A stretch of DNA of 40,000 nucleotides from Dongshaea marina (lineage in GTDB: Bacteria; Pseudomonadota; Gammaproteobacteria; Enterobacterales; Aeromonadaceae), in assembly GCF_003072645.1 (NCBI RefSeq), contig NZ_CP028897.1:655658-695657 (forward strand), read 5' to 3'. Below the pieces are notes generated by a model, which had not been told where the DNA came from, did not search any database, and saw only the letters and a list, made by a program, of their open reading frames with translations. Within the stretch, counting starts at the first letter, position 1; each line of letters opens with the position of its first letter. The translations under genes and the position numbers were made by a program. Of the stretch, positions 3,444-40,000 are shown one piece after another.

Positions 3444-3499
3444 TGTTACGCTTTCGACAAGTTGCTTGCTAGCGCATATTTTTTAACTGGTTGAAGCCG

Positions 3500-4363
3500 A
3501 TGAAAACAGTAAATAACGAAAACCCCGTAGATTGCCTGAGCCCTGAGGCGATCGCCGCCCTGGCCGAGGAAACAACGATCGCTAAGGCGACGAAGCCGAT
3601 TGGTAAGTCATTTATGCTGGCGATTACCGCCGGGGTCTTTATCTCGATCGCCTTTGTGTTTTATGTCACGGTGACCACAGGTTCAGCTGGTATGCCCTGG
3701 GGAATGTCTCACTTTGTCGGTGCATTGGCGTTCTCCCTGGGACTTATTCTGGTGGTGCTTTTGGGCGCAGAGCTCTTTACCTCCTCAACTCTGACTATCC
3801 TGGCGAGAGCTTCAAACCGGATCACGACCAGACAGGTGTTGGGGAACTGGGTTCTGGTGTACCTGGGGAATTTTGTCGGTGCCATGGTGATGGTGGCGCT
3901 GATCTTCTTCTCGGCGCAGTTTATGGCGGATAAGGGGCAATGGGGATTGACGGCGCTTAAGCTTGCTCAGCATAAGATCCATCACACCTTTGTGCAGGCG
4001 GTGTGCCTTGGGATCCTGTGTAACCTGTTGGTTTGCCTGGCGGTATGGATGGCGTTTGGTGCCCGTAGTGCCACTGATAAGGTGATGGTGCTGATACTCC
4101 CCGTGGCCATGTTTGTCGCCTCTGGTTTTGAACACAGCATTGCCAATATGTTTATGATACCGACCGGCATCATCATCCATGCCTTTGCCGGGCCTGAGTT
4201 CTGGCAGGCGATCGGCCACTCACCGAGTGATTTTGCCGATCTCACTGTGCATAACTTTGTGCTGAAGAACCTGATTCCTGTGACCCTGGGGAATATCATC
4301 GGGGGTGGGGTGATGGTTGGCCTGGTTTACTGGGGGATCTTCCGTCGTAAGTACGCTCAGTGA
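3500..4363 (+). CDS. focA: formate channel FocA (formate/nitrite transporter family)
   Basis: Near-collinear with E. coli FocA as recalled: LAITAGVFISIAFVFY, FTSSTL, HKIHHTFVQAVCLGILCNLLVCLAVWM, LPVAMFVASGFEHSIANMFMIP, NLIPVTLGNIIGGG. ATG 3500 chosen; an in-frame TTG at 3491 is possible. Confidence 0.93.
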   Translation: MKTVNNENPVDCLSPEAIAALAEETTIAKATKPIGKSFMLAITAGVFISIAFVFYVTVTTGSAGMPWGMSHFVGALAFSLGLILVVLLGAELFTSSTLTILARASNRITTRQVLGNWVLVYLGNFVGAMVMVALIFFSAQFMADKGQWGLTALKLAQHKIHHTFVQAVCLGILCNLLVCLAVWMAFGARSATDKVMVLILPVAMFVASGFEHSIANMFMIPTGIIIHAFAGPEFWQAIGHSPSDFADLTVHNFVLKNLIPVTLGNIIGGGVMVGLVYWGIFRRKYAQ

Positions 4364-4389
4364 GTTAGTGCAGCGAAGCGCTATTATCT

Positions 4390-4745
4390 ATACCACTTCT
4401 CTGTGTATTATGATTTGCAGCTGCGCTGCAAGTGCCGGTGCTGACCGGCGGCAGGCAAGGCCGTTCTCAGGCATCCTGCCCTTCACGGCATTGATATATC
4501 CCTATATGGCAAAGGTGCTCCGCGCTTCTGATACACAGGGAAGTGTGAATGTCGCGTTAAACATGGATGTTGTTAGCGGCATGCATCTCCCGGGGCGCCC
4601 CGAACCTCACTTCCTCCTGGGCTCATCTAAGAGTTAAGGCATCACTTAGACATCACATCCATGTGGTGACTAAGCTCTCGCGATATCCCTATCGCTCAGC
4701 CTCAATACTTAACGGTTCGCCTCGGCGTTCGCTCACGGGGAGTTA
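4390..4745 (-). ncRNA. candidate CsrB/RsmZ-like GGA-loop hairpin-array RNA (unit A-left); alternatively a hairpin-array repeat
   Basis: No credible ORF. Minus-strand hairpins GGC-AGGAU-GCC (4470-4480), AUAU-AGGG-AUAU (4494-4507), CAC-AUGGAU-GUG (4654-4665), GCGAU-AGGGAU-AUCGC (4680-4695). Hand count on the plus strand 4441-4750: 9 TCC versus 3 GGA. Shares modules with 34490-34610. Confidence 0.4.
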
Positions 4746-4747
4746 GT

Positions 4748-4850
4748 CCCCGTCTATTTGCGCCGAAAGTTTCAAATAGGAAGCAGAGGGTGAGCGGCAT
4801 GGACACCGCGAAAGGGCAACCAGTACATGGACGTACTGTTGGCCTGATCT
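4748..4850 (+). ncRNA. short GGA-loop hairpin unit (A-right), same family
   Basis: Starts with the module CCCCGTCTATTTGCGCCGAA (19/20 with the minus strand of 13492-13511). It is followed by AGGAAG, GCGG-CAUGGACA-CCGC (4794-4809) and CAGUAC-AUGGAC-GUACUG (4821-4838). 3 GGA versus 0 TCC. Confidence 0.25.
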
Positions 4851-4856
4851 GATATG

Positions 4857-6901: not shown

Positions 6902-8409
6902 TTAACGAAATGCAGCAACGAGTGCGGGGATCCCCGGTAGCATCCCGACCACAGCCATCGCGATAAAGCAGATACAAAAAGAAAGCCCTGGAATTACTAC
7001 TTTATCCACAAAACTGAGTGTTTTGGAGCGCTCTTTATCGCCGATTAATCCATTGTTATCCAATAGCATGGTTAATGACCAGCCAAAGACGGGATTAACT
7101 ACCGCAGAGGCAAAGATGCAGATCCCGGCGGACTGAGTGTCTTTTGCTGATTTAACCATCAGCATACCCGCTTCCAGCAAGGGTAAAAATACCCCGACCA
7201 GCAGAGCGATACTCATCACAGGCCGCCACACCGTAATATCCATGGGATAGCCTATCAGTGCAACCAGCGCACAGAGCACCCCAAGTAAGATAGCGCCTCC
7301 GGGGATAGGACGTTTGGCGATCGCCGCCGGTATCATGTAGGTTCCCCAGGATGAGGTGATGTTACCTCCTCCAAGAAAGCCCCAATAATTTGACGGACCG
7401 AGCAGGCTGTCATGGTGTCGTCCACATCCATCAAAACTTTTTTGGCTTTTTTCGGGTAGTTCAGCTCCTGGAAAACCCTGTGTCCCAGGAAGTCGGGAGA
7501 CCACATGGCGACGGCAAGAATGGCAAAAGGCAAAGATGCGATAAAGTGCTGCATCGTTGGCAAGCCTAGCTTCCAACCGGTTTCTGTGGATCCCCACCAA
7601 TACACGGGGTTCAGGTTTGGTAAGCCGGGTTCGGTTTTAAATTCAAAGGGTGCCCCAAGCCCTAAGGCGATCACTACTGCGATCACTGAGCATAAGGGGA
7701 TCGAGAGCCAGCGCTTGCCGATGCGAGCCAGGTAGGCATAAACCACAACATTGACCAGTAGCACAATGAAGGCGATATAGCTGAGATCCATTTCTCCGGC
7801 CCACTCGACCAGTGAGCCGATCTGAGAGATGGTTCCGGTGAGGCCCAGATAAGCAAGTAACCCTCCGGCAACGCCTTCACCGGTCAGTTTTACCAGCCTG
7901 GAGCCGCCCTTGGTAATACTCAGAATCAAACCAAAGACCCCGAGCATGATGGCCAGCGCCAGAGGGTGTCCCCCCGCGAGAGCTATCATGCCGATCAGTG
8001 GGATCATAGGTCCATGGGTTCCCGCCAAATTGGCCCGGGGGTTGAAAAGTCCTGAGGTCAGGATCACAAACAGTGAGGCGGATACCAGCATCTCAGCCCG
8101 GACATTCTCAATCACAAAGTCATCACTCAGGCCATAACTTGCTGCATAGGATGACATGATCGCTGAAAACATCACCGTAATACCGATAGTTCCTGCAATG
8201 GCGGGAACCAGATCCTCCCACTCAATACGAAAGTCTCTGCCGGGAAGGTTTAGCCGCCAGCGGCGGGGCTTCATTATGATGAGTTCATGATCAAGGTAAT
8301 CTGAGCGCTTGGCAAACTCACTGCTTGGACGGTGCAATTCACGATAACTCTTTTCTTGATCAAGATCCTTGTTACTCGTATCCGTTTCGTGGGAATTATT
8401 GTTTTGCAT
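6902..8409 (-). pseudogene. polytopic membrane permease of unrecognised family, one 1-nt frameshift as assembled
   Basis: ORFs 7333-8427 and 6902-7600 overlap in different frames. Protein-like sequence switches at ...MTACSVRQIIGAFL | GGGNITSSWGTYMIPAAIAKRP, near 7368-7375. Adding one G to the coding-strand GG run restores about 502 aa with many TM segments. ATG 8409 with GAGAAGG at 8419-8425. Confidence 0.7.
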
Positions 8410-8439
8410 AATTGCGTACCTTCTCAATAGCAGCTGCTA

Positions 8440-8853: not shown

Positions 8854-9651
8854 TTAGGGGGCCGGAGAGTAGACCCTTGGCTGGCTGCGCTGGGGCAGGT
8901 GAAGCAGGTTTAAGCCATGTTTACGCGCCAGCTCGACCGCCAGGGTGGTCGGGGAGGCCATGGTCACCAGACACTCCAGGCCGCTACGAATCGATTTTTG
9001 CACCAACTCGATGCTGCAGCGGCTGGTCATCAGGACCACACCGGCACGGGTGTCGATCTGTTGTTGTTGCAATTGACCGATCAGCTTATCCAGGGCGTTA
9101 TGACGGCCAACATCTTCTGAGCAGAACAAGAGCTCACCGGCACTGTCCATATAGAGGGCTGCATGCATGGCACCGCCCTGACTCTGGAAATCACGTACCC
9201 GGTCGCGAAGACCTTCGAACAGCTTGGGTTGTGGCAGGCGGGCAGGCTCCAGCTCGGGAAGATCGGGAAAGGCGGCACTCAGTGAATCTATGCCACACAG
9301 GCCGCAGCCGGTGCGTCCAGCCAGGGCGCGGCGATGAGCGCGAACCCGATAGTCTGCCCTATGGCTCAGGGTGATATCTGCGACTATGGCTCCTCCCTCC
9401 CACTGCCACTCGATATCCTGGACTTCGAGGCGGTTTTTGACGATTCCCTCGCTGATAATGAAACCCAGCAGGAAGGGCTCAATTTCGGTGGGAGAGATCA
9501 TCATCACGGCATGGTTTACCCCATTGAGGCTGATGGCGATGGGCACCTCATTGACCAGTTCAACCGGCTGAGCCTTGTCGTCCTCCAAGGATGTATAGTT
9601 CATGGCAAGGTGGTTGAGCTCACAAGGCTCGGTGCTGGAGCGACACGACAT
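8854..9651 (-). CDS. fdhD: formate dehydrogenase accessory sulfurtransferase FdhD
   Basis: 265 aa. VPIAISLNGVNHAVMMISP, RRALAGRTGCGLCGIDSL, EDVGRHNALDKLIG, MTSRCSIELVQKS match FdhD. Confidence 0.9.
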   Translation of the reverse strand: MSCRSSTEPCELNHLAMNYTSLEDDKAQPVELVNEVPIAISLNGVNHAVMMISPTEIEPFLLGFIISEGIVKNRLEVQDIEWQWEGGAIVADITLSHRADYRVRAHRRALAGRTGCGLCGIDSLSAAFPDLPELEPARLPQPKLFEGLRDRVRDFQSQGGAMHAALYMDSAGELLFCSEDVGRHNALDKLIGQLQQQQIDTRAGVVLMTSRCSIELVQKSIRSGLECLVTMASPTTLAVELARKHGLNLLHLPQRSQPRVYSPAP

Positions 9652-9847: not shown

Positions 9848-9939
9848 GGAATGAGATAGGGTCTGGTGGCCCTCTCGGTCTTCAAAACCGATGTGAGCTG
9901 TATCGGCTTAGGCAGGTTCGATTCCTGCCTCTTCCGCCA
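9848..9939 (+). tRNA. selC: tRNA-Sec (anticodon UCA)
   Basis: 92 nt. Anticodon loop CUUCAAA (UCA 9882-9884). 6-bp D-stem AGGGUC/GGCCCU with a 4-nt loop. Long variable arm. T-arm GCAGG-UUCGAUU-CCUGC. Discriminator G plus CCA. The 3' end resembles E. coli selC. The acceptor stem has an unpaired U5. Confidence 0.9.
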
Positions 9940-10017: not shown

Positions 10018-11418
10018 ATGTCTGAAATCAGTTCAAGGAATGTTGCCGTGTCCGCCAAAACAGCAGTCAATTACCGTCTTCCCCAGGTTGAGCAGCTTCT
10101 GCAGCACAACATACTAGTTCCTTATATCCGGATCCTCAGTCGACCCGTAGTGACCGAGATTATTCGCGCCCAGTTTGCCAAGATCCGTCAATCGCCGCTG
10201 TTTAAGGAGAAGGGAGTCGATGGAATTGATGTGCTGCAGCTTTTGGTGAAAGCCTGCGAGGAGCAACAACTGCGCCGTCAGACCCGGGTGATCAATGCTA
10301 CCGGCATCGCGGTTCATACCAATCTTGGACGCTCTCCTCTATGTCCTGAGCTGTGGGACAGTGTGCGTCATATCAATACCGGCTATAGCAACCTGGAGCT
10401 AGAACTGAGCAGTGGTAAGCGTGGTGGACGCAACGGGCTGCTTTCTACTCTGGTCAATGCCTGGCTGGGCGCCGAAGATTGTGTACTGGTCAATAATAAT
10501 GCCGCTTCTATGTACCTCATCCTGCATGCACTGGCTGCGGGCAAAGAGGTGATCGTTTCCCGGGGTGAGCAGATCCAGATTGGTGGCGGTTTTCGGATCC
10601 CGGATATTTTAGCTCTGTCCGGCTGTAAGCTGGTGGAGGTGGGGACGACCAATATCACCACCAGTGATGATTACATCGATGCGATCACCGAAAATACCGC
10701 CATGGTGTTGATGGTCCATCAATCCAACTTTTCGATTCAGGGGTTCACCGAATCACCCGATATCCAGGATGTGGCGCGTCGCCTGCCGGAGCATGTTCAG
10801 CTGGTGGTGGATCAGGGATCGGGACTGTCAACGGAGCAGTATGCGGACAGTGAAACCTCACTGGCGCGTTATCTGCAAATGGGGGCCGATCTGGTGTGTT
10901 TCTCCGGTGATAAGATCATCGGGGGCCCTCAGGCAGGATTTATCGCAGGGCGCAGTGAGCTCACCAAGATCCTGGCTAAAAATCCTATGATGCGCGCCTT
11001 CAGGCCGGGACGAATTGTGCTGTCACTGCTTGAGGAGCTGCTGGTTCGTAAGCTCAACCAGCTGGATTCAGGGGAGGGGGTTGCCCAGCACGCCCTGAAT
11101 CGTGCACAGCAGACCCGGGAGCTTGCCGATGAGCTGGCTGCTCGCTGGCCTGGCTACGCCCAGGCAACACCGATGCAGATGCAGGTGGGCGGCGGCTCGA
11201 TTCCCAGTGAAACCTATGACTGTTTTGGGCTCACTCTATCTTTGCCGGGTAAGGCGCAGCAGCACCTGGATGCCCTACGGGCTCTTGCGACCCCGATTAT
11301 CGGCTATCTTCAGTCAGAGCGGGTACTCCTGAACCTGGCAACCTTGCTCCCTGAGGATATGGCACTGTTCCTGTCTCAGCTTGATTCCTATTTTGAGGCC
11401 CTTGGCGCACAGGCTTAA
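10018..11418 (+). CDS. selA: L-seryl-tRNA(Sec) selenium transferase
   Basis: 466 aa. INATGIAVHTNLGRS, VSRGEQIQIGGGFRIPD and FSGDKIIGGPQAGFIAG (PLP lysine region) are SelA hallmarks. Confidence 0.92.
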   Translation: MSEISSRNVAVSAKTAVNYRLPQVEQLLQHNILVPYIRILSRPVVTEIIRAQFAKIRQSPLFKEKGVDGIDVLQLLVKACEEQQLRRQTRVINATGIAVHTNLGRSPLCPELWDSVRHINTGYSNLELELSSGKRGGRNGLLSTLVNAWLGAEDCVLVNNNAASMYLILHALAAGKEVIVSRGEQIQIGGGFRIPDILALSGCKLVEVGTTNITTSDDYIDAITENTAMVLMVHQSNFSIQGFTESPDIQDVARRLPEHVQLVVDQGSGLSTEQYADSETSLARYLQMGADLVCFSGDKIIGGPQAGFIAGRSELTKILAKNPMMRAFRPGRIVLSLLEELLVRKLNQLDSGEGVAQHALNRAQQTRELADELAARWPGYAQATPMQMQVGGGSIPSETYDCFGLTLSLPGKAQQHLDALRALATPIIGYLQSERVLLNLATLLPEDMALFLSQLDSYFEALGAQA

Positions 11419-11422
11419 TCAG

Positions 11423-13267
11423 ATGATCTATCAGAATAACTCAGAGTCGGCCTATCAGGCTGTTGTTGGTTTGGCCGGACATGTTGATCATGGTAAGACG
11501 GCGCTGATTGAGGCGCTGACCGGCATGATGACGGCTCGCCCTCATGAGCAGGCGCTGGGGATGACCCAGGATCTGGGGTTTGCCCATTTTGCGGATGATG
11601 CAGGTAATACCATAGGGGTGGTTGATGTACCGGGCCATGAGCGCTACCTGCGTAACATGGTAGCCGGAGTCTGGCATCTCAATGCGTTGATACTGGTGAT
11701 CGCCGCCGATGAGGGATGGATGCCTATGACCACCTCCCACCTGCAGGTGGCTCATGCGATGGGGATCAGCAATATCATCGTCTGTATCAACAAGAGTGAT
11801 AAGGTTTCCTCCGAAGAGCTGGCCGAGGTTGAGGAGCAGGCTCTGGAGCATGTGATGGATATGTCCGGTCTGGTGCCTGAGCTCGTGAGTGTCTCGGCAC
11901 TGAGCGGCGATAATATCCCTGAGCTTAGGGAGCTAATCATTGAGACCCTGACCCAAGATCTTTGTGTGCCTTGTGTAGATTCTGATCAGCCAAAGATAGA
12001 GGCTGAGCCTTTACTCTATGTGGATCGGGCATTTGTGGTTAATGGGATTGGGACCGTGGTTACAGGCACCCTGGCCCAGGGAATACTCTCTATTGGTGAT
12101 AAGGTGCGCTGTTACCCATCAGGCCTTTTGGGAACTGTGCGCTCACTGCAGGCCTATCACCGCCAGCTTGAAAGCGTCTCCGGAACCTGCCGGGTCGCAG
12201 TGAATATCAAGGGGCTGACCCGTAAAGAGGTTGAGCGGGGTCACCTGGTGACCGGGCGTGAGCAGAAGATAGCTCAGTGTGAACAGTGCCTGGTACGACT
12301 CAATCCCTCGGAGGATGAGCCATCGGCGAAACGACAGCGGGAGGTTGAGGTTGCGATTGGTACCTGGCATGGCTTTGCAAAGCTCTGCTATATCCCCAAC
12401 ACCAACCTGGCGCGGTTGATATTTAAAAAGCCGGTCTCGCTGCAGTTTGCCCAACGGCTGGCGATGATTCAAAAAGGCGGGAGCCGCCTGTTGCACGGTG
12501 CTCAGGTGGTATGGACCGACTTTATTCCCTCCTATCAGAAGCGCCGTATCTACACAGCTCTTAATGAATTGCCAGAGAGCCTGACGGCGGAAGCTCTGCC
12601 ACAGCTGCTGCTTAGCCTGCAAGGATATTTTGATGTCGAGCAGATCGCAGGAGATAGCGACTGTCAGGGCGTGACCCTTGGTCCTTATCTGTTTGAATCT
12701 GACTGGCTAGCCAGGGCTCAGGAAAATATTTTGCAGCGCCTTGATAAGGGGTTGTCGCTCAGTAGCGTCGAGCTCAGCGATCAGCTGGAGATCGAAGAGC
12801 CGGTGTTGAATGTCATCATGCAGGAGCTCAAGCAGCGGCAGATCGTACACCTCAGTTATGGCAAATGGCGTCATGGGGAGGGGGATAATGAGGATGAACT
12901 TCCCACAGAGGCGCTAACCCTGTTGCAGCAAACCCGCGATTGCGGCAAGGCGGGGCTTGAGCTTTCCAAGATAAAACTGGCTCCGGGCTCCAAGAAGTGG
13001 CTGCGCCAGCTATGCCACCAGAAATATATTACCGCACTGGATGAAAGCATCTATTACGACATGGGGATCTACCGGGAGATGATCCAGGCGGTGGTCGCCG
13101 ATCACCAGAGTCAGGATCGGATCTCGATGGGGGATATCAAGGATCGCACCGGGCTGAGCCGTAAGTATGCGATCCCCCTGGCCAACCGGATGGAAAAAGA
13201 TGGCTGGGTGCGGCGGGATGGGGATGAGCGAATCATCCTGAAATCCTGGGAAGAGGTTTCGTCTTAA
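11423..13267 (+). CDS. selB: selenocysteine-specific elongation factor
   Basis: ATG 11423 lies 5 nt after the selA stop. 614 aa. G-domain GHVDHGKTALIEALTG, DVPGHERY, NKSD, plus a long winged-helix C-terminal part. Confidence 0.92.
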   Translation: MIYQNNSESAYQAVVGLAGHVDHGKTALIEALTGMMTARPHEQALGMTQDLGFAHFADDAGNTIGVVDVPGHERYLRNMVAGVWHLNALILVIAADEGWMPMTTSHLQVAHAMGISNIIVCINKSDKVSSEELAEVEEQALEHVMDMSGLVPELVSVSALSGDNIPELRELIIETLTQDLCVPCVDSDQPKIEAEPLLYVDRAFVVNGIGTVVTGTLAQGILSIGDKVRCYPSGLLGTVRSLQAYHRQLESVSGTCRVAVNIKGLTRKEVERGHLVTGREQKIAQCEQCLVRLNPSEDEPSAKRQREVEVAIGTWHGFAKLCYIPNTNLARLIFKKPVSLQFAQRLAMIQKGGSRLLHGAQVVWTDFIPSYQKRRIYTALNELPESLTAEALPQLLLSLQGYFDVEQIAGDSDCQGVTLGPYLFESDWLARAQENILQRLDKGLSLSSVELSDQLEIEEPVLNVIMQELKQRQIVHLSYGKWRHGEGDNEDELPTEALTLLQQTRDCGKAGLELSKIKLAPGSKKWLRQLCHQKYITALDESIYYDMGIYREMIQAVVADHQSQDRISMGDIKDRTGLSRKYAIPLANRMEKDGWVRRDGDERIILKSWEEVSS

Positions 13268-13284
13268 CCTGCGGTTGGCTGGTT

Positions 13285-13830
13285 TGTGCCTGCGGCACAC
13301 TAATGCCGCTGCCGAGCGGCAGCGGGAAGAGGGTATTGCTTGTCCAATACCCTCTTCACTCCCAAGGACACCCCGGAATTTGCTTCATCCCCATGCTCCA
13401 TCAGATTCACTAACGGACAGACAGAACGTCCCTGTTCTGACTGTCCTTCAATCACATCCATGTGATTGATACGTTCATCAACAATGAAGCATTCGGCGCA
13501 AATAAACGGGGCCCAACATCCCAGTCAGTTAGCTCGGTGGTGATATCTAAATTTTTTCTCTGTTCTGGTTTCAGCGCTGAAACAAAAAACTCCAGGAGAA
13601 ACTGAAAGTACCTCGGATATCAAATCGAAGAGAGGAAGTTATATCCCTGATCTCGCTTACCCCTCGAAGAGCCTGAGGAAAAAAGTTCCGATCAGACAGT
13701 AATCCCTATATTGACTGCTCTCTCGAAACATCCTGTTTCTCGACTTTAAGCCTCCACGGCTCTCCTCGGAGCTTGCTCATGGGGAGCAAACTTAATATTC
13801 ACTTCGATTATTATTTTCAGTGAGGTGATT
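13285..13830 (-). ncRNA. candidate GGA-loop hairpin-array RNA or repeat (unit B)
   Basis: Minus-strand hairpins: 13-bp stem with loop AGGGAC (13415-13446), CAAUCAC-AUGGAU-GUGAUUG (13449-13468), GAAAC-AGGAU-GUUUC (13725-13739), loop CAAUAUAGGGAUU (13697-13717), and a perfect 13-bp stem with GGACAAG (13326-13357). Hand count on the plus strand: 16 TCC versus 11 GGA. Shared modules at 13492-13511 and 13619-13641. Confidence 0.35.
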
Positions 13831-14378
13831 GCTACAAAAACAATATCATCAATTCCTAGTAGGAATTAACAGTTATGATGCTCTTTAGATGGTAACTTTC
13901 GAAAATCAGTGATTATTTAATATTTATTCTGTGTATCTTTTCCTGTTTGAAAAAGACTGCGGCGACGCTTTGATTCAGTGTGGATCGGTCTGATAATGTA
14001 CTGATATGAAGAGCTATTGAAACCCTGCTTTTCCATTGCTTTCAAACAGTTTTCTTCACCTAGCTCAGCGACGACAGCCTCTAAAACTTTTATGGCATCT
14101 TTTCTCGCTGTTTGCTCAGTCCTCCATTTTCCTGTTTACACCTTCTGCTGGATTATTTCGTCTAACACTGAGGGTAAATGATTTTTACCACGGAATGACA
14201 TTGAGGGAGCTCCTTTGTTTCAAAAGGGCCATATTGCTCCTTTGAAAACTGGATTTCAATAAGACTAGCCATTGTTGGGGTATTTCGACATCTCTTGTAG
14301 CGAAGTCACTAATCCTATCTGCAGGATCGACAGGGATTCATTAAACTTACTTTTAGATCCCCTGGTGAGACCGTCCAT

Positions 14379-15261: not shown

Positions 15262-15307
15262 TTCGACACTAGTGTCGAAAGATGTGATTAATGACACAGT
15301 TTTCCTA
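15262..15307 (+). promoter_or_regulatory. candidate FhlA upstream activator sites of the hyf operon
   Basis: Perfect 18-bp palindrome TTCGACACTAGTGTCGAA (15262-15279), CGAAAGATGT (15276-15285; identical 10-mer at 26771-26780) and ATGACACAGTTTTCCTA (15291-15307). 75-120 bp upstream of the sigma-54 promoter. Confidence 0.55.
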
Positions 15308-15382
15308 TGGAAAATACCTGAGCGCTGATGTCTGGTATTTGTAACTATAGGAAATATAAGCGTTAATTTGAAGTTCAATTTC

Positions 15383-15398
15383 TGGCACGGTAATTGCT
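15383..15398 (+). promoter_or_regulatory. sigma-54 promoter of hyfA
   Basis: TGGCACGGTAATTGCT is a full match to TGGCAC-N5-TTGC(A/T). 35 nt upstream of ATG 15433. Confidence 0.85.
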
Positions 15399-27539: not shown

Positions 27540-29684
27540 ATGAAAAAAATCACAACTGTTTGCCCCTATTGTGGAACGGGGTGCAAACTGAAGTTGGTTG
27601 TCGAGAATGACAAGGTGGTGGCTGCGGAGCCTGCGAATGGCCGCACCAATGAAAGCCAGCTTTGTCTTAAAGGCTATTATGGCTGGGACTTTCTCAACGA
27701 TACCAACTTACTGACTCCACGCCTAAAACAGCCGATGATTCGTCGCACCAAGGATTCCGCTCTTGAAGCTGTCTCCTGGGATGAAGCATTGGACTTCACC
27801 GCGAATAAACTGAAGGCGATCAAAGATAAGCATGGTCCGGACGCCATTATCACCACAGGCTCTGCCCGTGGACCCGGTAATGAAGCCAACTATGTGATGC
27901 AAAAACTCACGAGGGCGGTCTTCGGGACCAATAACGTCGATCACTGCGCTAGGGTGTGACACGCTCCCTCAGTCTCCGGTCTGGAGACAACAGTAGGTAA
28001 TGGTGCCATGAGTAACGCCATTCCCGAAATTCAAGATACGAAATGCTTACTCATATTCGGTTACAACGCGGCTGACTCTCACCCGGTTGTAGCAAGACAC
28101 ATTCTGAAAGCACGCGCTAAGGGTGCCAAAGTTATTGTTTGTGACCCACGTAAGATTGAAACTGCGCGGGTTGCGGATCAGTGGCTGGCCCTGAAAAACG
28201 GCTCTAACATGGCCGTGGTTAATGCGCTGGCGAATGTCCTGATCGAAGAGAACCTCTACGACAAGGCGTATGTACAACAAAATGTGGAAGGCTTTGAAGA
28301 GTTCCGCAAGGTTGTAGAAAAGTATACTCCTGAGTCGGTTGAGGAGATCACCGGACTGAAGGCCGATGAGATCCGTCAGGCTGCCCGTACCTATGCCGAG
28401 GCATCTGAAGCGATGATCCTGTGGGGCATGGGTGTGACCCAGTATGGTCAGGCGGTTGACGTGGTGCGTGGCTTGGCGGGTCTTGCCCTGCTGACCGGTA
28501 ACTTTGGCCGTCGTGGCGTGGGTTGTGGTCCGGTTCGTGGCCAGAACAACGTTCAGGGTACCTGTGACATGGGTATGCTGCCTAATGTCTATCCTGGCTA
28601 CCAGTCGGTTGAGGATGATGCGGTTCGCGAGAAGTTTGAAAAAGCCTGGGGCGTTAAACTTTCTGCGAAGCCGGGCTACAAGCTGACCGAGATCACTCAC
28701 AAGGTGGAAGAGGGTAAGTGTAAGGCCTTCTACATCTTTGGTGAGGATCCGGCTCAGACAGAAGCCGATCTGAACGAGCTGCGTGAAACCCTGCGTAAGA
28801 TGGAGCTGGTAATTGTTCAGGATATCTTCATGACTCAGACTGCTGAGTTTGCGGATGTAATCTTCCCGGCGACCAGCTGGGGTGAACATGAAGGCGTTTA
28901 CAGCTCTGCGGACCGTGGTTTCCAGCGCTTTAGCAAGGCGGTGACTCCACCACCGAATGTGAAGCCTGACTGGGAGATCTTCTGCCTGCTGGCTCAGAAA
29001 CTGGGTTACCAGATGTCCTACAACAACACCCAGGAGATCTGGGATGAGTTGCGGGGTCTGTGTCCTAAGTATGCAGGTGCGTCCTACGAGAAGATGGAAG
29101 GCTTGAAATCGGTTCAGTGGCCATGCCCAACCGACGATCATCCGGGAACCTCCTTCCTGTTTGAAGGAAACAAGTTCACCACTCCATCGGGTAAGGGACA
29201 GCTGATCGCCGCCGACTGGCGTCCACCGCATGAGCAGCCGGATGAGGAGTATCCTCTGGTGCTGTCTACCGTGCGTGAAGTGGGTCACTACTCCTGCCGC
29301 TCGATGACGGGTAACTGTGCCGCGCTACAGACTCTGGCCGATGAGCCGGGTTATGTGCAGATCCATCCTGATGATGGTAAGGCTCTGGGTGTTGAGGATC
29401 AGCAGTTGGTCTGGATCTCCTCGCGCCGCGGTAAGGTTATCACGCGTGCGAACTTTAATGACCGGGTGAACAAGGGTGTGGTTTACATGACCTATCAATG
29501 GTGGATCGGTGCTTGTAACGAGCTGACCATTGAGCATGTGGATCCTATCTCTAAGACCCCTGAGTATAAGTTCTGTGCGGTGAAAATCGAGCAGATTGAA
29601 GATCAGGCTTCGGCTGAAAATTACGTACAGACAGAGTACAGTGATATGAAACGTCGCCTGAAGAATCATGTAGCGAACGCATAA
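27540..29684 (+). CDS. fdhF: formate dehydrogenase H, selenocysteine-containing (UGA at codon 140 read as Sec)
   Basis: ORFs 27540-27959 and 28008-29684 are in the same frame, separated only by TGA 27957-27959. The context VDHCARV-U-HAPSVSGLETTVGNGAMSNAI equals the FdhH Sec140 site. N-terminal CPYCGTGC 4Fe-4S motif. 714 codons. Confidence 0.95.
27960..27992 (+). promoter_or_regulatory. bacterial SECIS element of fdhF
   Basis: 11 nt after UGA comes the hairpin GUCUCC-GGUCU-GGAGAC (27972-27988). Spacing and the GGUCU apical loop match the E. coli fdhF SECIS as recalled. Confidence 0.85.
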
Positions 29685-31920: not shown

Positions 31921-34005
31921 ATGGAACGCTTTGAAAGTGATTTGATGAGTTTTTCAAAAGCACTGCTATCGATTAATGATATCTCTGGTCTGATGACTTT
32001 TCTAAATGATGATAACCTCTCTTTTATTCAGGTAGATAGAGTTAACATTATTTTGAAAAGTGATCTCAACACTTTTCCAACCCTCTATCATTTGGATGAA
32101 AATAAACAACTACAGCGTTATGAATATAATGCCGATGGAATGCCTCTGCATAGTGTTGCGAATGATGATTACACCCATAAAATAGAGGGTGAGGCTCTCT
32201 ACCTGAGTTACCCTCAATTAATAAATCATCCTGCTTATATCGATGTGAACAGTTATTATAAGGTTCCATTGACGACCGCAAATCAACAACTCGGCGCCAT
32301 AGAATTCATCAATATTCAACAGAGTAGTGAGGGGATTCAGGAGAAAAAACTTAAGCTATTCAATAACATGATAGCAACCATGGTGGAGCATATCATTGAG
32401 CATGAGCTGGCTTCAAATGCAGCCCAGCAATTGAATAATGAGCGTAAGAATTTTCAGGTGTTGGTTGATGTTACTAATGCAGTGATCAGTAAAAGTACCA
32501 AGAAAGATCTGATTACATCTTTGTTGAAATTTATCTATCAGCACTTTGGGATGAGAGACCTGTCCATCATTCAGGTTCATGAAGGACATTATAATCAGCA
32601 CTCCTGTAGTTATAGCGGTGGTAATATCGATTATCACAGTCACTTTTTTACCAATGCTCAATCGATCAAGCAGGTGATTGAAAATAAAAAGCCGCTGTTT
32701 TTGGATGAAGACTCAATTCGTGGGTTAAGCTTTGAAACCAACGCTCCCTTCTTTCCTTCTGAGGTAAAGAGTGCCTGTGTTGTGCCTATGGTTTTTCGTA
32801 GTGGAACCGTCGGCTATATCTGTTATATGCAGCGCCAGGAGCGCACATTTTTGCCCGATGATGTGGTGCTGTTCGGCCAGATTGCTGCCAGGGTCGCGCT
32901 GGCGATGCATAGCCTCAAGGTGCATGAAGCCAGATCTAAAACCAGAGCGGGTGGTAAGTATATCAGTATTGAAGATAGCTATATGGAGCATGCTATTTTT
33001 GATGACATCATCAGCCAGAGTGAGGCGATGAACCAGGTTCTGGATCAGGTGACTATGGTCGCTGACTGTGACAGCACAGTGCTGATCCTCGGTGAGTCGG
33101 GTACGGGTAAGGAGCTGATTGCCCAGGCGATTCACAAGATGAGTCGGCGCAGTGGTACCCGGATGGTCAAGATGAACTGTGCAGCGGTTCCAGCGGGACT
33201 CTTTGAAAGTGAGCTGTTTGGCCATGAGCGCGGTGCTTTTACCGGAGCGATCAGTAAGCGGGTGGGGCGCTTTGAAGAGGCCCATAAGGGGACTTTGTTT
33301 CTCGATGAGATTGGCGATATGCCCCTTGAGCTGCAGCCTAAGCTGCTCAGGGCTTTGCAGGAAAATGAGATTGAGCGGGTGGGTAAGAATCAGCAGATCT
33401 CGGTTGATGTACGGATCGTGGTGGCAACCAATGCTGATTTGGACTCTATGGTTGAGTCCAAAGCTTTTCGCAGCGATCTCTATTACCGCTTAAATGTGTT
33501 CCCTATCCTGATCCCCCCCCTGCGGGAGCGCCCCGAGGATATCCCTCTGCTGGTGAAGCATTTTACCCGGGTGATCTCCAAAAAGATGGGGAAGAATATT
33601 ACCGATATCACGGTTGAGGCGATGGATGTGCTGAGCCGCTGTGCCTGGCCGGGGAATGTCCGTCAGCTGCGTAACTTCATCGAGCGTTCAGTGATCCTGA
33701 CCCGGGGTCAGGTGCTCAATGTTCCTGTCGCTGAACTTCAGGGCCAGGGGACGCGGCCAACCCGCCAGACGGCTGAGCCGATATTTGAGGTCGAGCCTGC
33801 TCCCAAGCCGGTGGCGACCGATAACGGCTTTGATCGTGACGCTATTATCGATGCGCTGCGCCGCAGTAACGGGATCATCTCGGGACCGCGGGGCGCCGCA
33901 ACCAAGCTCGGGCTCAAGCGTACCACTCTTTTATCCCGGATGCAGAAGATGGGGATCAAGAGCCAGGACTACCTTGAGGAGGCCGACGAAGAGAACTTCG
34001 CCTGA
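31921..34005 (+). CDS. fhlA: formate hydrogenlyase transcriptional activator (sigma-54-dependent, GAF-AAA+-HTH)
   Basis: 694 aa. [19 protein letters not shown] (compare E. coli CRERDNFRILVAITNAVLS), [35 protein letters not shown]-terminal [22 protein letters not shown]. Confidence 0.92.
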
Positions 34006-34011
34006 TTTTCC

Positions 34012-34044
34012 GCCGGAGGCTCACTAAGCCTCCGGCTTTCCTTT
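34012..34044 (+). terminator. rho-independent terminator of fhlA
   Basis: GCCGGAGGCT-CACTA-AGCCTCCGGC followed by TTTCCTTT. Confidence 0.85.
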
Positions 34045-34049
34045 ACCAG

Positions 34050-34440
34050 TAGCTGACTTTTCATTGTGCTTCGCACGGCTAAATTGCAGCTGCGCAGCAT
34101 GATTGTCGGGGTGCCGGCAGCACATTACTTTTGTACCGCCAAAAGTAATCAAAAGCTCCCTTCGCGCTGCGAGTCCCTCCGCAGCTCGATGATGACCATC
34201 CTTGGTCATCTATCCCAGTTCAGCTTCCTGCTTCTCGTTCCATTACCCTTGGGGTAATTTCACCCTATCTCACGTTACGTTGCTCTGGGAGCAACTTCCC
34301 CCCTCCGAAGAGCTGAGGGGTGTACTCGCAGCATCCATGCTGCTCCACTTCAAATCACTTTATGATTTTTCGGCACGAATCAAAGGGGGCTCTAAAACTA
34401 CCTCTTCGATTTAGTTTTGGTGACTTTTTCGAGCAAAGCA
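34050..34440 (-). ncRNA. candidate GGA-loop hairpin-array RNA (unit C-left)
   Basis: Hand count on the plus strand: 11 TCC versus 1 GGA. Minus-strand hairpins GAUGACCA-AGGA-UGGUCAUC (34191-34210), GCAGC-AUGGAU-GCUGC (34328-34343), GCUGCGGAGGGACUCGCAGC (34166-34185). Further GGA in AAUGGAAC, GCAGGAAGC, CUGGGAU, AAGGGAG. Confidence 0.4.
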
Positions 34441-34790
34441 GGAAGCTTCAAGCTGTAATACCGAATCAAATCGAAGAGAGGAAGTTAACCCCCGTGAGCG
34501 AGCGCCGAGGCGAGCCGTAGAAGATTCAGGTCGAATCACATGGATGTGATGAGAGCTTAGCCGCTACAGGGATGTTGCGTCTAAGCGGTGCCTTAATGCT
34601 CAGGTGAGCCGAGGGTTAAGCGAGATCCGGGGCGCGAGGGGATTGCAAAGGGGAAAGGCGTTTGCCCCTTTGCTCGCTGTCGGGCGATCCCGACAATTAC
34701 TGCAAATCTGCCATCCGCAGGATAAAGATCGACGTAGTTTGACCTGCGGTCAGCTGATTTGTGCCACAGGCACAAAACAGCTGGCTTTTA
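34441..34790 (+). ncRNA. candidate GGA-loop hairpin-array RNA (unit C-right) with terminator
   Basis: 7 GGA versus 3 TCC. Hairpins AUCAC-AUGGAU-GUGAU (34535-34550) and GCUUAGCCGC-UACAGGGAUGUU-GCGUCUAAGC (34555-34586; the loop matches the CsrA SELEX motif ACARGGAUGU), plus GCAAAGGGG...CCCCUUUGC (34645-34673). Ends in a 15-bp stem with a U-rich tail. Confidence 0.45.
34751..34790 (+). terminator. terminator-like hairpin closing unit C-right
   Basis: CAGCTGATTTGTGCC-ACA-GGCACAAAACAGCTG (one mismatch) followed by GCTTTTAGTCGCAATTTTT. Confidence 0.55.
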
Positions 34791-34878
34791 GTCGCAATTT
34801 TTGAGCAATGCTGTTGACTCCCGGGCTATTTTTCGCTGGAAATAGATCATCTGAAAGATAGACTGGAGTCATACGGGC

Positions 34879-35046
34879 ATGGGGAAAATTGTATCGATTG
34901 AATTGAGTGAGATTCACCAGGCATTAATTCAGCGAGCGGCAGAGTTAGCGGGAATGGAGCTTGAAGAGTATGTCCATTATGTCAGTGTTGAGGCTTCCAA
35001 AAAAGTGTTGGGACTGTGTGGTGGTGAACCCGAAGAGCTCGGTTGA
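34879..35046 (+). CDS. short DUF1778/TacA-like (ribbon-helix-helix) antitoxin-like ORF, apparently truncated and orphan
   Basis: 55-aa ORF, below the track cutoff: MGKIVSIELSEIHQALIQRAAELAGMELEEYVHYVSVEASKKVLGLCGGEPEELG. It resembles the N-terminal half of TacA-type antitoxins. No intact GNAT toxin ORF follows. Confidence 0.4.
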   Translation: MGKIVSIELSEIHQALIQRAAELAGMELEEYVHYVSVEASKKVLGLCGGEPEELG

Positions 35047-35427
35047 GGCAATTTGAGAGCGATAACAAGACAAAGGTGCTTTTTAAAAAGTGCGAGCTGG
35101 CAGGGATCCTTTCCCGTTCCTTGTTCTGTGAGACCTGACTAAACAACCAGCTGCCGACCCATACTAAGCGAGAGATGGGCTCACACAAAATGATTTTCCG
35201 CCTGTGCTTCATTTGTAGGGGGATCCCCTTGGCCACTCTTGAGATCACCATTAGGTTGGCAGGGAGCAGCTTCGCTCCTGCCTGAAATGGCTGCTTTTCA
35301 CCCTCTGGGTGTATTCACTGGCATTTACTTCTCTGGGGGATAACACTCATGATGAATAATGCTATGCGGCCTGTCACATACAAACCGGTACTTTTTATTT
35401 CACCATTTATTTGTGTATGTATTGAAA

Positions 35428-38001: not shown

Positions 38002-38078
38002 TGGTGGCCCCTGCTGGACTTGAACCAGCGACCAATCGATTATGAGTCGACTGCTCTAACCAACTGAGCTAAGGGGCC
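38002..38078 (-). tRNA. ileX: tRNA with CAU anticodon, ileX-type tRNA-Ile2 (lysidine-dependent) rather than tRNA-Met
   Basis: The reverse complement GGCCCCTTAGCTCAGTTGGTTAGAGCAGTCGACTCATAATCGATTGGTCGCTGGTTCAAGTCCAGCAGGGGCCACCA is almost identical to E. coli ileX as recalled. Clean cloverleaf. Confidence 0.85.
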
Positions 38079-38348
38079 GTGACTGCAATTCTTACACTCC
38101 TTGCGCCGATCGCAAAGCGAAATTTGCATAATTAAGGTTTTCACCCGAGAAAGGCGATCTTTTACTCAAAAATATACTTTTTTATCTTTTTGCTTTGTGA
38201 GAGGTTCGCGCTGGCTTATCGTGATGGCGTGCGTCTGGTCTGTTAGTGTCTGAAAAGGTTACAGGGAACGGACAGGGACCCGTGCCAGTACGCACTCCTT
38301 ATTTTATGATTCAGCCTTCTCAAGCCCTTTGTTGCAGGCTGGTGATGC

Positions 38349-38537
38349 TCAGCTCGGTTCTAAATGAGCTGAATGCTGAAGGTAGATGTTACGGCATTCA
38401 CTTTTCAGAAATACGGCCTGAGGGCCACAACGGATGCACCAGGCAGCGCCAAGCAGGTGGCCTTTCTCGTCAGTGTTTCCGGATGTTCTGAAGACGTATC
38501 CACATTCGGGACAGGCGACTTTAATCGATTTTTGCAT
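38349..38537 (-). CDS. small zinc-ribbon protein (CPECG...CIRCG)
   Basis: 62-aa ORF immediately downstream of the HTH ORF. The CxxC-N22-CxxC arrangement is reminiscent of phage Ogr/Delta-type zinc fingers. The C-terminal part is of doubtful coding quality. Confidence 0.35.
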   Translation of the reverse strand: MQKSIKVACPECGYVFRTSGNTDEKGHLLGAAWCIRCGPQAVFLKSECRNIYLQHSAHLEPS

Positions 38538-38555
38538 AAGACCTCCAAAAATGGA

Positions 38556-38741
38556 TCAGGATGAGTGCTCAAGAACCGACATGATTCTTTGGAGTTCCGG
38601 ATAGGGCGGCAGGCGGTTGTGGGTCAGATATCCCCTGAGTCGAGCCGGGTCACAGTGACTATCTTTCGCAAGCTGCTCCAGGGTCAGATTTTTTTGCCGC
38701 ATCTGCTGTTTGATGGCATCTGTGTATAGCATAACTGGCAC
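38556..38741 (-). CDS. small helix-turn-helix protein
   Basis: 61 aa. LTLEQLAKDSHCDPARLRGYL looks like an HTH. Confidence 0.4.
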   Translation of the reverse strand: MPVMLYTDAIKQQMRQKNLTLEQLAKDSHCDPARLRGYLTHNRLPPYPELQRIMSVLEHSS

Positions 38742-38968
38742 TCTCCCATAACAAGATGAACTACCTTATCCCTGAACCGGGACTCTTCTGTTCGGAGTTA
38801 CTCTTTCAACCGATGAGATGATTATTGGCGAAGTGGTTGAGCCTGACTATAAGGGATTGACCCTAGATAGAGGTGAGGGAGATCGCAATCAGCTGTTTCA
38901 GAGCAAAGGTATACCGCTCCAACCCGTGGGTGGGTTCCGGGGTTGATGAGAGCGGTGTGGAGGAAGCC

Positions 38969-39283
38969 TTAGCGGTTTTGGCTTGCATTCCCTGATGACT
39001 GAGGCGAAGATCGGGCACTTGAGCGAGAGAGCTCAGAAAAATGCTCGATCATGTCATGCAGGATGTCAGGGTTTACACCATCGATCTTTGTGGTATCGAT
39101 GCCGAGTTGATCGAGCTTTTTTAGCAGTTCATCGTAGCTCGGCCGGTTGATAACGTAGCCCATGGCACACTCCATGTGTTCATGTGAAGCTCTAATAAGA
39201 ACAATAATCTGATCGAAAATCAATGAGTTCAAAGGGGCAATTGTGGGATCTATGTTGGAGATTTGTAGAAAAAAATCTAACAT
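38969..39283 (-). CDS. hypothetical protein (real start probably an internal Met)
   Basis: ORF only. The plausible core is MGYVINRPSYDELLKKLDQLGIDTTKIDGVNPDILHDMIEHF. Confidence 0.3.
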   Translation of the reverse strand: MLDFFLQISNIDPTIAPLNSLIFDQIIVLIRASHEHMECAMGYVINRPSYDELLKKLDQLGIDTTKIDGVNPDILHDMIEHFSELSRSSARSSPQSSGNASQNR

Positions 39284-39366
39284 TGTTAACCCGATACCAT
39301 ATCATGGCCAGTAATGTTCTGATTGTTTTAAGCGGCGCAGATCGCGATTTTACCCAAGGATGATCG

Positions 39367-39609
39367 ATGAAAGTACATGTGAAGAAGATACATGCTCCAC
39401 AGGAAACCACTGAGTGTTTTGGGGATGATTGGGTGGAGATCGTGGTGAATGCTTCAGCGCTTCTGCCTCTGACAACCAACCTGACCTCCTGGCTGAAGAG
39501 TAATGACTCGAGAAAAGTGGAGTTTACCCATAAGGGATTGACGATTAAGGTCGATGAGTCAGAGCAGATTCCGGGGATTTTTGATCAGATCAAACGCTTA
39601 GATGAATAG
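39367..39609 (+). CDS. hypothetical protein
   Basis: 80-aa ORF divergent from 38969-39283. No recognisable family. Confidence 0.3.
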   Translation: MKVHVKKIHAPQETTECFGDDWVEIVVNASALLPLTTNLTSWLKSNDSRKVEFTHKGLTIKVDESEQIPGIFDQIKRLDE

Positions 39610-40000
39610 GGCTGAGTCGGGAATCTCTCTCGGGAAGCTACTGAGGAGCGTAAGATTGTCGCTGTAAGATGGCTTTTGCGGGTCATACCAAAGATTTTTC
39701 TACCTTCAGCACTATAAAAGCATAAATTCAGATCTGCTCAGAGGCGCAGCACCTGGGCTGGAAGTGGTCTTGCTTGTTAAATTGACCACTTATTCAGTGT
39801 GGGAACCTTTTGTCCGTGATAAAATGCCGCTCCGAGGCCACCCCTGTTATTACTGTATCCGGATGCGTCCCCTTTCATTAAGGCTCATCATTGTACTGCG
39901 GTTATCACTCTTTTTATCCCTGGTGGTCTCATGACTCTCAATTGATGAGCATCACTGGCCGCGTACTCGAATGCCTCTGTTGCTGAGGCTACATCGAATG

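Follow-up and report, generated by a model that had tools for sequence, protein, structure and literature searches.

Probable TwoAYGGAY-like structured repeats arranged head to head downstream of fhlA in Dongshaea marina, and their possible role as dual-site CsrA decoys

A 40,000-nucleotide stretch of the Dongshaea marina genome (contig NZ_CP028897.1, positions 655,658 to 695,657; hereafter the window, numbered from its first base) contains, within about 740 non-coding bases 3' of the gene fhlA, a head-to-head pair of hairpin-rich elements. An earlier note, made from the letters of this stretch, had described them as divergent arrays of GGA-loop hairpins, either a pair of CsrB-like genes or one large inverted-repeat element, and knew of no description of three such loci within 30 kb, each next to the 3' end of a formate-module operon. 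Our analysis leads us to conclude with high confidence that the two elements belong to a TwoAYGGAY-like structured repeat family; the supposed novelty was not borne out, as the core motif is already known under the name TwoAYGGAY (RF01731; PMC2864571), and the elements are neither a CsrB homologue nor a new class. The reading that we favour overall, with a confidence only modestly above even, is that they are head-to-head TwoAYGGAY-like modules which plausibly serve as dual-site CsrA decoys when transcribed. This confidence combines the one in the family identity with the one in the mode of action, and that the repeat family works through CsrA is a prediction that we hold more tentatively, at somewhat short of even.

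The canonical unit of the pair lies in the right arm (unit C in Table 1). Its two hairpins, with ACAUGGAUGU and ACAGGGAUGU loops, sit inside a closing helix (P1) that is long and bulged. Hairpin 1 occupies positions 34535–34550 and carries the loop AUGGAU, whereas hairpin 2 (34555–34586) carries ACAGGGAUGU. Fold predictions place the GGA of both loops in an unpaired state with a probability of at least 0.98; these two sites, approximately 28 nt apart, are the only GGA sites that the right arm exposes. The sense strand of the unit folds 9 kcal/mol better than the antisense strand, which hints at the strand on which the structure would act.

Repeat finding and blastn revealed that the segment 34486–34635 on the plus strand is homologous to 4595–4745 on the minus strand (74% identity) and to 13645–13784, also on the minus strand (70%). 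RNAalifold brought the three copies to one structure, the long bulged closing helix around two GGA-loop hairpins, and a covariance model built from them (R1, from units A, B2 and the right arm of C) was then used for an unfiltered search of the whole window. The family comprises at least four full units plus further cores and fragments, which lie in the three long non-coding tracts of the window: tract A (~4364–4856, after focA), tract B (13268–14378, after selB) and tract C (34006–34878, after fhlA). The same layout recurs in every tract: next to the 3' end of the upstream gene is a minus-strand element, and an element or core on the plus strand points away from it. The units share no conserved open frame, each of the six frames being broken by stops in every unit, and the open reading frames (ORFs) of the tracts have no Pfam match.

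Although the copies are only 70–74% identical, their helices are well kept. In a five-copy alignment, 91.2% of the base-pair cells are paired, against about 35% when the partners are slid, and compensatory two-sided changes are found in 25 of 47 pairs, values that none of 500 shuffles reached. Hairpins 5 and 6 each have six pairs changed on both sides, while closing helices 1–4, with about 28 bulged pairs, are 85–100% paired and likewise show compensatory changes. The GGA is invariant in all ten loops of the aligned copies, which read AUGGAU, AGGGAU, A-GGAU, AGGGAC or AUGGAC, the second position being a purine (R) in about half of them. Among the window copies, the GGA-loop hairpins are conserved and covary, and the loops match the CsrA/RsmE consensus.

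Table 1. Features of the repeat pair after fhlA and of related elements in the window (bits and E-values from model R1 unless stated otherwise)
Feature	Position	Strand	Evidence
Right-arm canonical TwoAYGGAY-like unit (unit C), 167 nt	34484–34650	+	185 bits; consensus fold; covariation
5' motif of right element, 23-mer ATCAAATCGAAGAGAGGAAGTTA	34465–34487	+	Identical copy at 13619–13641 (+); blastn 100% over 23 nt
Two accessory hairpins of right element, GCAAAGGGG..CCCCUUUGC and UGUCGGG-CGAU-CCCGACA	34641–34695	+	Minimum-energy and centroid folds
Terminator-like hairpin with short U tail, 3' end of right element	34748–34790	+	Fold −25.8 kcal/mol, z = −5.3 (34748–34786)
Left-arm unit, expanded and degenerate TwoAYGGAY-like	34154–34416	−	Aligned to right-arm unit
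Hairpin-1 homologue of left unit, GAGCAGC-AUGGAU-GCUGCGA	34326–34345	−	Model positions 50–69, 13 bits, E = 0.012
Left-unit GGA hairpin GAUGACCA-AGGA-UGGUCAUC	34191–34210	−	8 bp, in minimum-energy fold, GGA P(unpaired) = 1.00
Left-unit GGA hairpin GCUGCG-GAGGGACU-CGCAGC	34166–34185	−	Sequence verified
3' modules of left element, CCGGCAC...GCUGCGCAGCUGCAA and diverged terminal hairpin GUGC-GAA-GCAC...CAGCU	34040–34153	−	blastn, multiple alignment
Central inverted repeat of the two 5' motifs, GGGGG..CUCUUCGAUUU / AAAUCGAAGAG..CCCCC	34386–34494		−38.4 kcal/mol, z = −3.07
Intrinsic terminator hairpin of fhlA, left boundary of tract C	34012–34036	+	Terminator scan: 10-bp stem, 8 GC pairs, tail TTTCCTTT
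Family member A, full unit after focA	4580–4746	−	181 bits; 74% identical to unit C
Family member A', two-hairpin core only, head to head with unit A	4790–4849	+	27.2 bits, E = 5e-7, model positions 48–107
Family member B1, full unit after selB	13352–13517	−	64.6 bits, E = 2e-18; independent of model building
Family member B2 (unit 13626–13790)	13619–13811	−	150 bits

Judged from its sequence, the left arm of tract C copies the right-arm element on the minus strand, in an expanded and partly degenerate form. The two arms can be aligned at the 5' motif (AAAUCGAAGAG..GUU), the helix-opening CCCCC, a GCCGA segment, the CAUGGAUG hairpin and the GAG that follows it, and the 3' end of P1 (GCGCGAAGGGAG versus GCGCGAGGGGAU), and the view of the earlier note that they are inverted copies of one ancestral element is thereby upheld. 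Since the arms align in this manner, we take tract C to be an old head-to-head (inverted) duplication. The left unit begins with the 5' motif CUAAAUCGAAGAGGUAGUU (34398–34416) and is closed by a helix between AGCCCCCUU (34383–34391) and AAGGGAGCU (34154–34162). It has lost hairpin 2, and approximately 100 nt of other hairpins, some of them GGA-looped, are found there instead. The homologue of hairpin 1 competes, in the global fold, with a long-range pairing to 34166–34185. As a whole the left arm folds at −141.7 kcal/mol (z = −4.2), and six of the 11 GGA on its minus strand are predicted to be unpaired. The AAATCGAAGAG modules reported for the beginnings of the two arms are present, at 34401–34414 on the minus strand and at 34465–34487 on the plus strand, and a spacer of about 48 bp (34417–34464) separates the two 5' motifs. 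The sequence AATCGAAGNG occurs four times in the window against 0.42 expected, always at unit ends. Two other sets of data from the earlier note were reproduced as well: the motif counts on the plus strand (11 TCC and 1 GGA in the left arm, 34050–34440; 7 GGA and 3 TCC in the right arm, 34441–34790) and the exact sequences of the quoted hairpins (34191–34210, 34328–34343 and 34166–34185 on the minus strand; 34535–34550 and 34555–34586 on the plus strand).

Beyond the units themselves, the tracts share a number of smaller modules. The identical 23-mers in tracts B and C are 21 kb apart, and the units that they adjoin are only about 70% identical to each other. These 23-mers are joined to units of opposite orientation, and the motif may be conserved more strictly because it is an element of a promoter or start site, because recombination takes place there, or because gene conversion has acted on it. 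The flanks of B2 bear imperfect inverted AATCGAAG...AAGTT motifs, its 3' flank being the exact 23-mer on the plus strand. CCCGACAAU of the right-element accessory hairpins is seen again towards the left element's 3' end, and the CCGGCAC...GCUGCGCAGCUGCAA module of the left element is common to tract A (4405–4440; blastn aligns 4415–4430 with 34084–34099); this assignment of the left 3' modules was made by visual comparison and is weaker than that of the units. The terminator that had been proposed for the end of the right arm is present as a stable hairpin, but its tail is short: the hairpin (34748–34786) is followed by UUUU, 4 U only, and for this reason falls outside the criteria of our terminator scan. 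A module related to it directly follows the selB stop codon (13268–13299; blastn 81–91% identity). A GUGCC-nnn-GGCACAAA-CAGC hairpin is common to 13268–13299 and 34743–34783 and may be a terminator module of the elements, possibly a bidirectional one. Tract A holds additional weak GGA-loop hairpins on both strands between 4480 and 4581, namely ATAGGGATAT (4496–4505, minus), ACAGGGAAGT (4535–4544, plus) and ACATGGATGT (4561–4570, plus), and an 8-bit R1 core match at 4529–4581 on the plus strand, together with these hairpins, suggests further decayed units.

The assignment of the family to TwoAYGGAY comes from Rfam and from the published description of the motif. At gathering thresholds, Rfam reported only two tRNAs in the window. 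Below them, RF01731, a member of clan CL00106, matched the core of unit C (34532–34588; 31.4 bits, E = 0.011) and that of unit B1 (13411–13471; 38.9 bits, E = 1.2e-4), in both cases on the GGA strand. TwoAYGGAY was defined by two AYGGAY terminal loops and a P1 that is "often very large" (Weinberg 2010, supplement; PMC2864571), with a range given as human gut, Clostridia and gamma-proteobacteria, and its alignment contains approximately seven copies of the gammaproteobacterium Psychromonas ingrahamii that are set in other repeated sequence. Four of these align with hairpin 2 of the D. marina units, and 9 of 12 pairs in that helix show compensatory changes. The likeness extends to the two adjacent GGA-loop hairpins, the long P1 closing helix, the non-coding and multi-copy character and the support from covariation, and CsrA binding is predicted for the D. 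marina units as it is for TwoAYGGAY (Gardner and Eldai; PMC4333381). The D. marina units differ in that several loops have a purine in place of the pyrimidine (AGGGAU), and in their P1, which is rich in G+C and has no sequence relationship to that of TwoAYGGAY. They also have the AAATCGAAGAG motif conserved on their 5' side and hairpin modules in common on their 3' side, and they form head-to-head pairs, one copy (the left arm) being longer by some 100 nt. Aeromonadales is in addition a new host order for the family, the Aeromonas and Tolumonas accessions that we sought being absent from the Weinberg alignment. We therefore regard the units as a divergent variant of TwoAYGGAY, whose architecture fits although the scores stay below the formal Rfam threshold.

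The loop sequences point to CsrA. The pattern AYANGGAYRT occurs 12 times in the window against 2.2 expected, a number that none of 100 shuffles reached, and nine of the 12 occurrences fall in the three tracts. Likewise, the CsrA/RsmE consensus WCANGGANGW, that is (A/U)CANGGANG(U/A), is found ten times, and the tracts, with about 6% of the window's length, contain eight of these occurrences. This enrichment of 5-fold or more, concentrated in the tracts, is a strong signal, unlike raw GGA counts: the seven GGA of the right arm are at background (window mean 6.1 ± 2.65 per 390 nt), and the strand asymmetry of the left arm, while within the top ~0.6% of 390-nt window bins, has counterparts in some coding bins where the strands differ by at least 9. 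CsrA itself is nearly universal in Gammaproteobacteria, and the range of spacings for dual-site CsrA binding described by Mercante et al. in 2009 reportedly takes in 28 nt.

On these grounds we read tract C as an old inverted duplication, in which the duplicated element is modular, non-coding and about 300–380 nt long. The core of this element is a TwoAYGGAY-class unit, in which a long bulged closing helix surrounds hairpins showing A(Y/R)GGAY loops, and in the right arm the canonical unit is followed by accessory hairpins and then by the terminator-like hairpin. The GGA-bearing strand would be transcribed, either from a promoter that escaped recognition or within longer transcripts, and the two loop sites, held about 28 nt apart by the closing helix, could bridge one CsrA dimer. 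Each unit might then act as a small CsrA decoy or as a local CsrA-recruiting module.

A number of results weigh against this proposal. The folding energy of single units is no better than that of shuffles (z about −1); the covariation comes from five paralogous copies only, in an alignment that was fitted to the model itself; and the wobble pairs of the helices carry no signal for an RNA strand, the G-U and A-C counts being 9 and 7. Both RF01731 scores lie under the 43-bit gathering cutoff (these are local, core-only matches), and units A and B2 have no Rfam match at all at E ≤ 10. The scans for transcription signals were similarly negative: the GacA/UvrY/VarA box (TGTAAG-N6-CTTACA), with up to three mismatches, occurs 13 times in the window against 11.7 expected and never upstream of either arm, a sigma-70 scan gave no site for either arm (its one match falls outside the tract, at 35349–35377 on the minus strand), and a sigma-54 scan gave no match in any tract. 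The presence of units in both orientations, the mosaic of modules and the terminal-inverted-repeat-like flanks of B2 would, in addition, fit a repeat that acts at the level of DNA.

This last possibility, which we consider unlikely but the most serious of the alternatives, holds that the units are a dispersed DNA repeat of the miniature inverted-repeat transposable element (MITE), repetitive extragenic palindrome (REP) or foldback kind, and that their resemblance to CsrA sites is incidental. They would then be non-autonomous mobile or recombinogenic palindromes whose hairpins a transposase or recombinase, its gene lying elsewhere, recognises in the form of DNA or single-stranded DNA; in an alternative form of this account, they would be merely terminators or 3' stabilisers of mRNA. 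Multiple copies in both orientations, confined to intergenic 3' ends, agree with it, as do the inverted AATCGAAG..AAGTT motifs on either side of B2, the 23-mer that is 100% identical between tracts 21 kb apart, the mosaic of shared modules, the failure to find a promoter and the absence of an RNA-strand signal from the G-U and A-C counts. The distribution among relatives also agrees with it: in the two nearest FhlA relatives (72% and 68% identical) the unit after fhlA is absent, and the gap to the next gene (fdhD in L002) is just 77–89 bp, although synteny differs there. REP/BIME, ERIC, Correia/NEMIS and MITE-like repeats are likewise dispersed in either orientation, at operon 3' ends, with long hairpins and module mosaics, but the D. 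marina units have no sequence similarity to any Rfam family of such repeats, their copies are old, their stems covary, and their loops bear the motif of an RNA-binding protein.

The manner in which the copies have diverged speaks against a purely DNA-level repeat. At 70–74% identity they are old, and yet the helices were kept by compensatory changes while the GGA stayed invariant in 10 of 10 loops; this favours selection for single strands that fold and carry specific loops, and not decay. Neither a transposase nor a recombinase gene is present in the window, and visual inspection revealed no clear target-site duplication; the inverted flank motifs are imperfect at B2, and the right element of tract C has only the 5' copy. 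The plasmid and phage collections returned no match (blastn, distant mode). A degenerate 24-nt pattern that fits three of the window copies was without match in viral contigs and had only three chance matches in genome contigs (a collection without the D. marina genome), and a 19-mer from the conserved 23-mer found five chance matches in metagenome contigs, none of them with a unit.

The interpretation offered by the earlier note, two divergent CsrB-like sponge small RNA (sRNA) genes of approximately 350–400 nt each, driven from a central promoter region and tied at three loci to the formate regulon, is in our estimation improbable. It would account for the head-to-head layout with a 48-bp spacer in all three tracts, for the strong terminator-like hairpin that closes the right arm, for the 11 GGA of the left arm (six predicted unpaired) and for the membership of TwoAYGGAY in the Csr/Rsm clan. 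The covariance models of CsrB and CsrC and of RsmX, RsmY and RsmZ, however, match neither arm, and at E ≤ 10 the sole CL00106 match between 33900 and 35000 is TwoAYGGAY. CsrB/Rsm-type sponge sRNAs carry roughly 7–22 GGA motifs, mostly in loops or single-stranded regions. They resemble the D. marina units in the placement of GGA in hairpin loops, the CsrA/RsmE consensus, the clan and the proposed titration of CsrA, but they are single orphan genes, whereas the units are repeated in both orientations within intergenic tracts and have neither a GacA/UvrY box nor a recognisable promoter. The canonical unit has two exposed sites against 7–22 and no sequence or model similarity to these sRNAs, and the two exposed GGA of the right arm, with a GGA density at background, would provide one CsrA dimer site and not a multi-site sponge. 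A pair of CsrB-like genes is thus not supported, and since a tract contains units of either orientation, a repeat family fits better than a dedicated gene pair.

The transcription signals expected of such genes are incomplete. Neither a sigma-70 site for the arms nor a sigma-54 match in the tracts was found, and the 34417–34464 spacer contains no promoter consensus, only weak -10-like hexamers just before AATCGAAG being discernible by eye; a strong terminator-like hairpin with a short U tail ends the right arm only, and the left arm has no U-tailed terminator. We also considered control of the arms by FhlA and sigma-54 and rejected it, because the sole perfect sigma-54 site of the window precedes hyf and the GTCGAAA-type palindrome there is unlike AAATCGAAGAG; this difference between the AAATCGAAGAG motif and the putative FhlA sites upstream of hyf again speaks against sRNA genes tied to the formate regulon. 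As for that tie, the association with formate genes is uninformative within the window, because most operons in it are formate-related and any intergenic repeat would adjoin one. In the region 15263–15398 (plus strand), the perfect sigma-54 -24/-12 match, TGGCACGGTAATTGCT, lies directly upstream of the hyf-type operon, and the palindrome TTCGACACTAGTGTCGAA, about 105 bp further upstream, is a likely FhlA binding site.

An invertible DNA switch, in which a unit is flipped between inverted repeats, is highly improbable: the 23-mer does adjoin the 3' end of a minus-strand unit at 13619–13641 (+) and precede a plus-strand unit at 34465–34487 (+), but these are different loci and not two states of one, the inverted partner at B2 is poorly conserved and the right element of tract C has no 3' partner, the unit is itself a hairpin and would thus have similar ends in both orientations, and no recombinase gene is nearby.

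We return to the TwoAYGGAY-like modules and their predicted binding of CsrA. To our knowledge, no function has been demonstrated for TwoAYGGAY since its entry into Rfam in 2010, the sole proposal being CsrA binding, aimed at Clostridia. The window now provides a divergent version, present in at least four copies in 40 kb of a cultured gammaproteobacterium, with loops of near-perfect CsrA/RsmE consensus, and thereby makes the CsrA-decoy hypothesis for TwoAYGGAY testable in such an organism. For annotation, it shows that the Rfam RF01731 model misses the D. marina branch of the family. It also becomes possible to ask whether CsrA-binding modules can spread as repeats. In its boldest form, which we regard as a long shot, the answer would be a self-propagating family of CsrA decoys that spreads structurally protected dual sites to operon 3' ends and that, in D. 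marina, has multiplied in the form of divergent pairs near the genes for formate/hydrogen-lyase and selenocysteine. Were this the case, read-through or local transcription during fermentation would shift the free CsrA pool, TwoAYGGAY would gain a function, and Csr control would be linked to formate metabolism.

The gene context of the three tracts is borne out by Pfam: focA lies at 3491–4363 and selA plus selB at 10018–13267, and a hyf-type hydrogenase operon is followed by fdhF and fhlA (31921–34005). The FhlA encoded there is 100% identical to the D. marina protein, with identity falling to 72% and 68% in the relatives that come next, and no close relative was found in which loop conservation could be compared at the orthologous site. 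In D. marina, fdhD is located at 8854–9651 on the minus strand, and the locus is rearranged relative to the relatives. Directly 3' of tract C, a 55-aa ORF (34879–35046, plus strand) is weakly similar to the N-terminal half of a TacA antitoxin (E = 7e-4, which does not reach the Pfam cutoff). This ORF, possibly what is left of a toxin-antitoxin cassette, lies at the synteny break, where the relatives have fdhD.

Three further observations concern other parts of the window. The DUF3360 gene at 6902–8427 on the minus strand is split into overlapping ORFs (6902–7600 and 7333–8427) that jointly cover the Pfam model from end to end, which indicates a frameshift, a pseudogene or a sequencing error. 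An in-frame stop divides the fdhF gene (27540–29684, plus strand) into two ORFs, and SECIS_3 is matched weakly at 27954–28012 (24.4 bits); the in-frame stop and this match point to a selenocysteine formate dehydrogenase, consistent with the tRNA-Sec at 9848–9938 and with selAB. Finally, the region 38002–40000 starts with a tRNA-Met (CAT) on the minus strand, continues with about 1.9 kb of short ORFs only, including a Cro/C1-type helix-turn-helix gene (38556–38741, minus strand), and may be a small integrated island.

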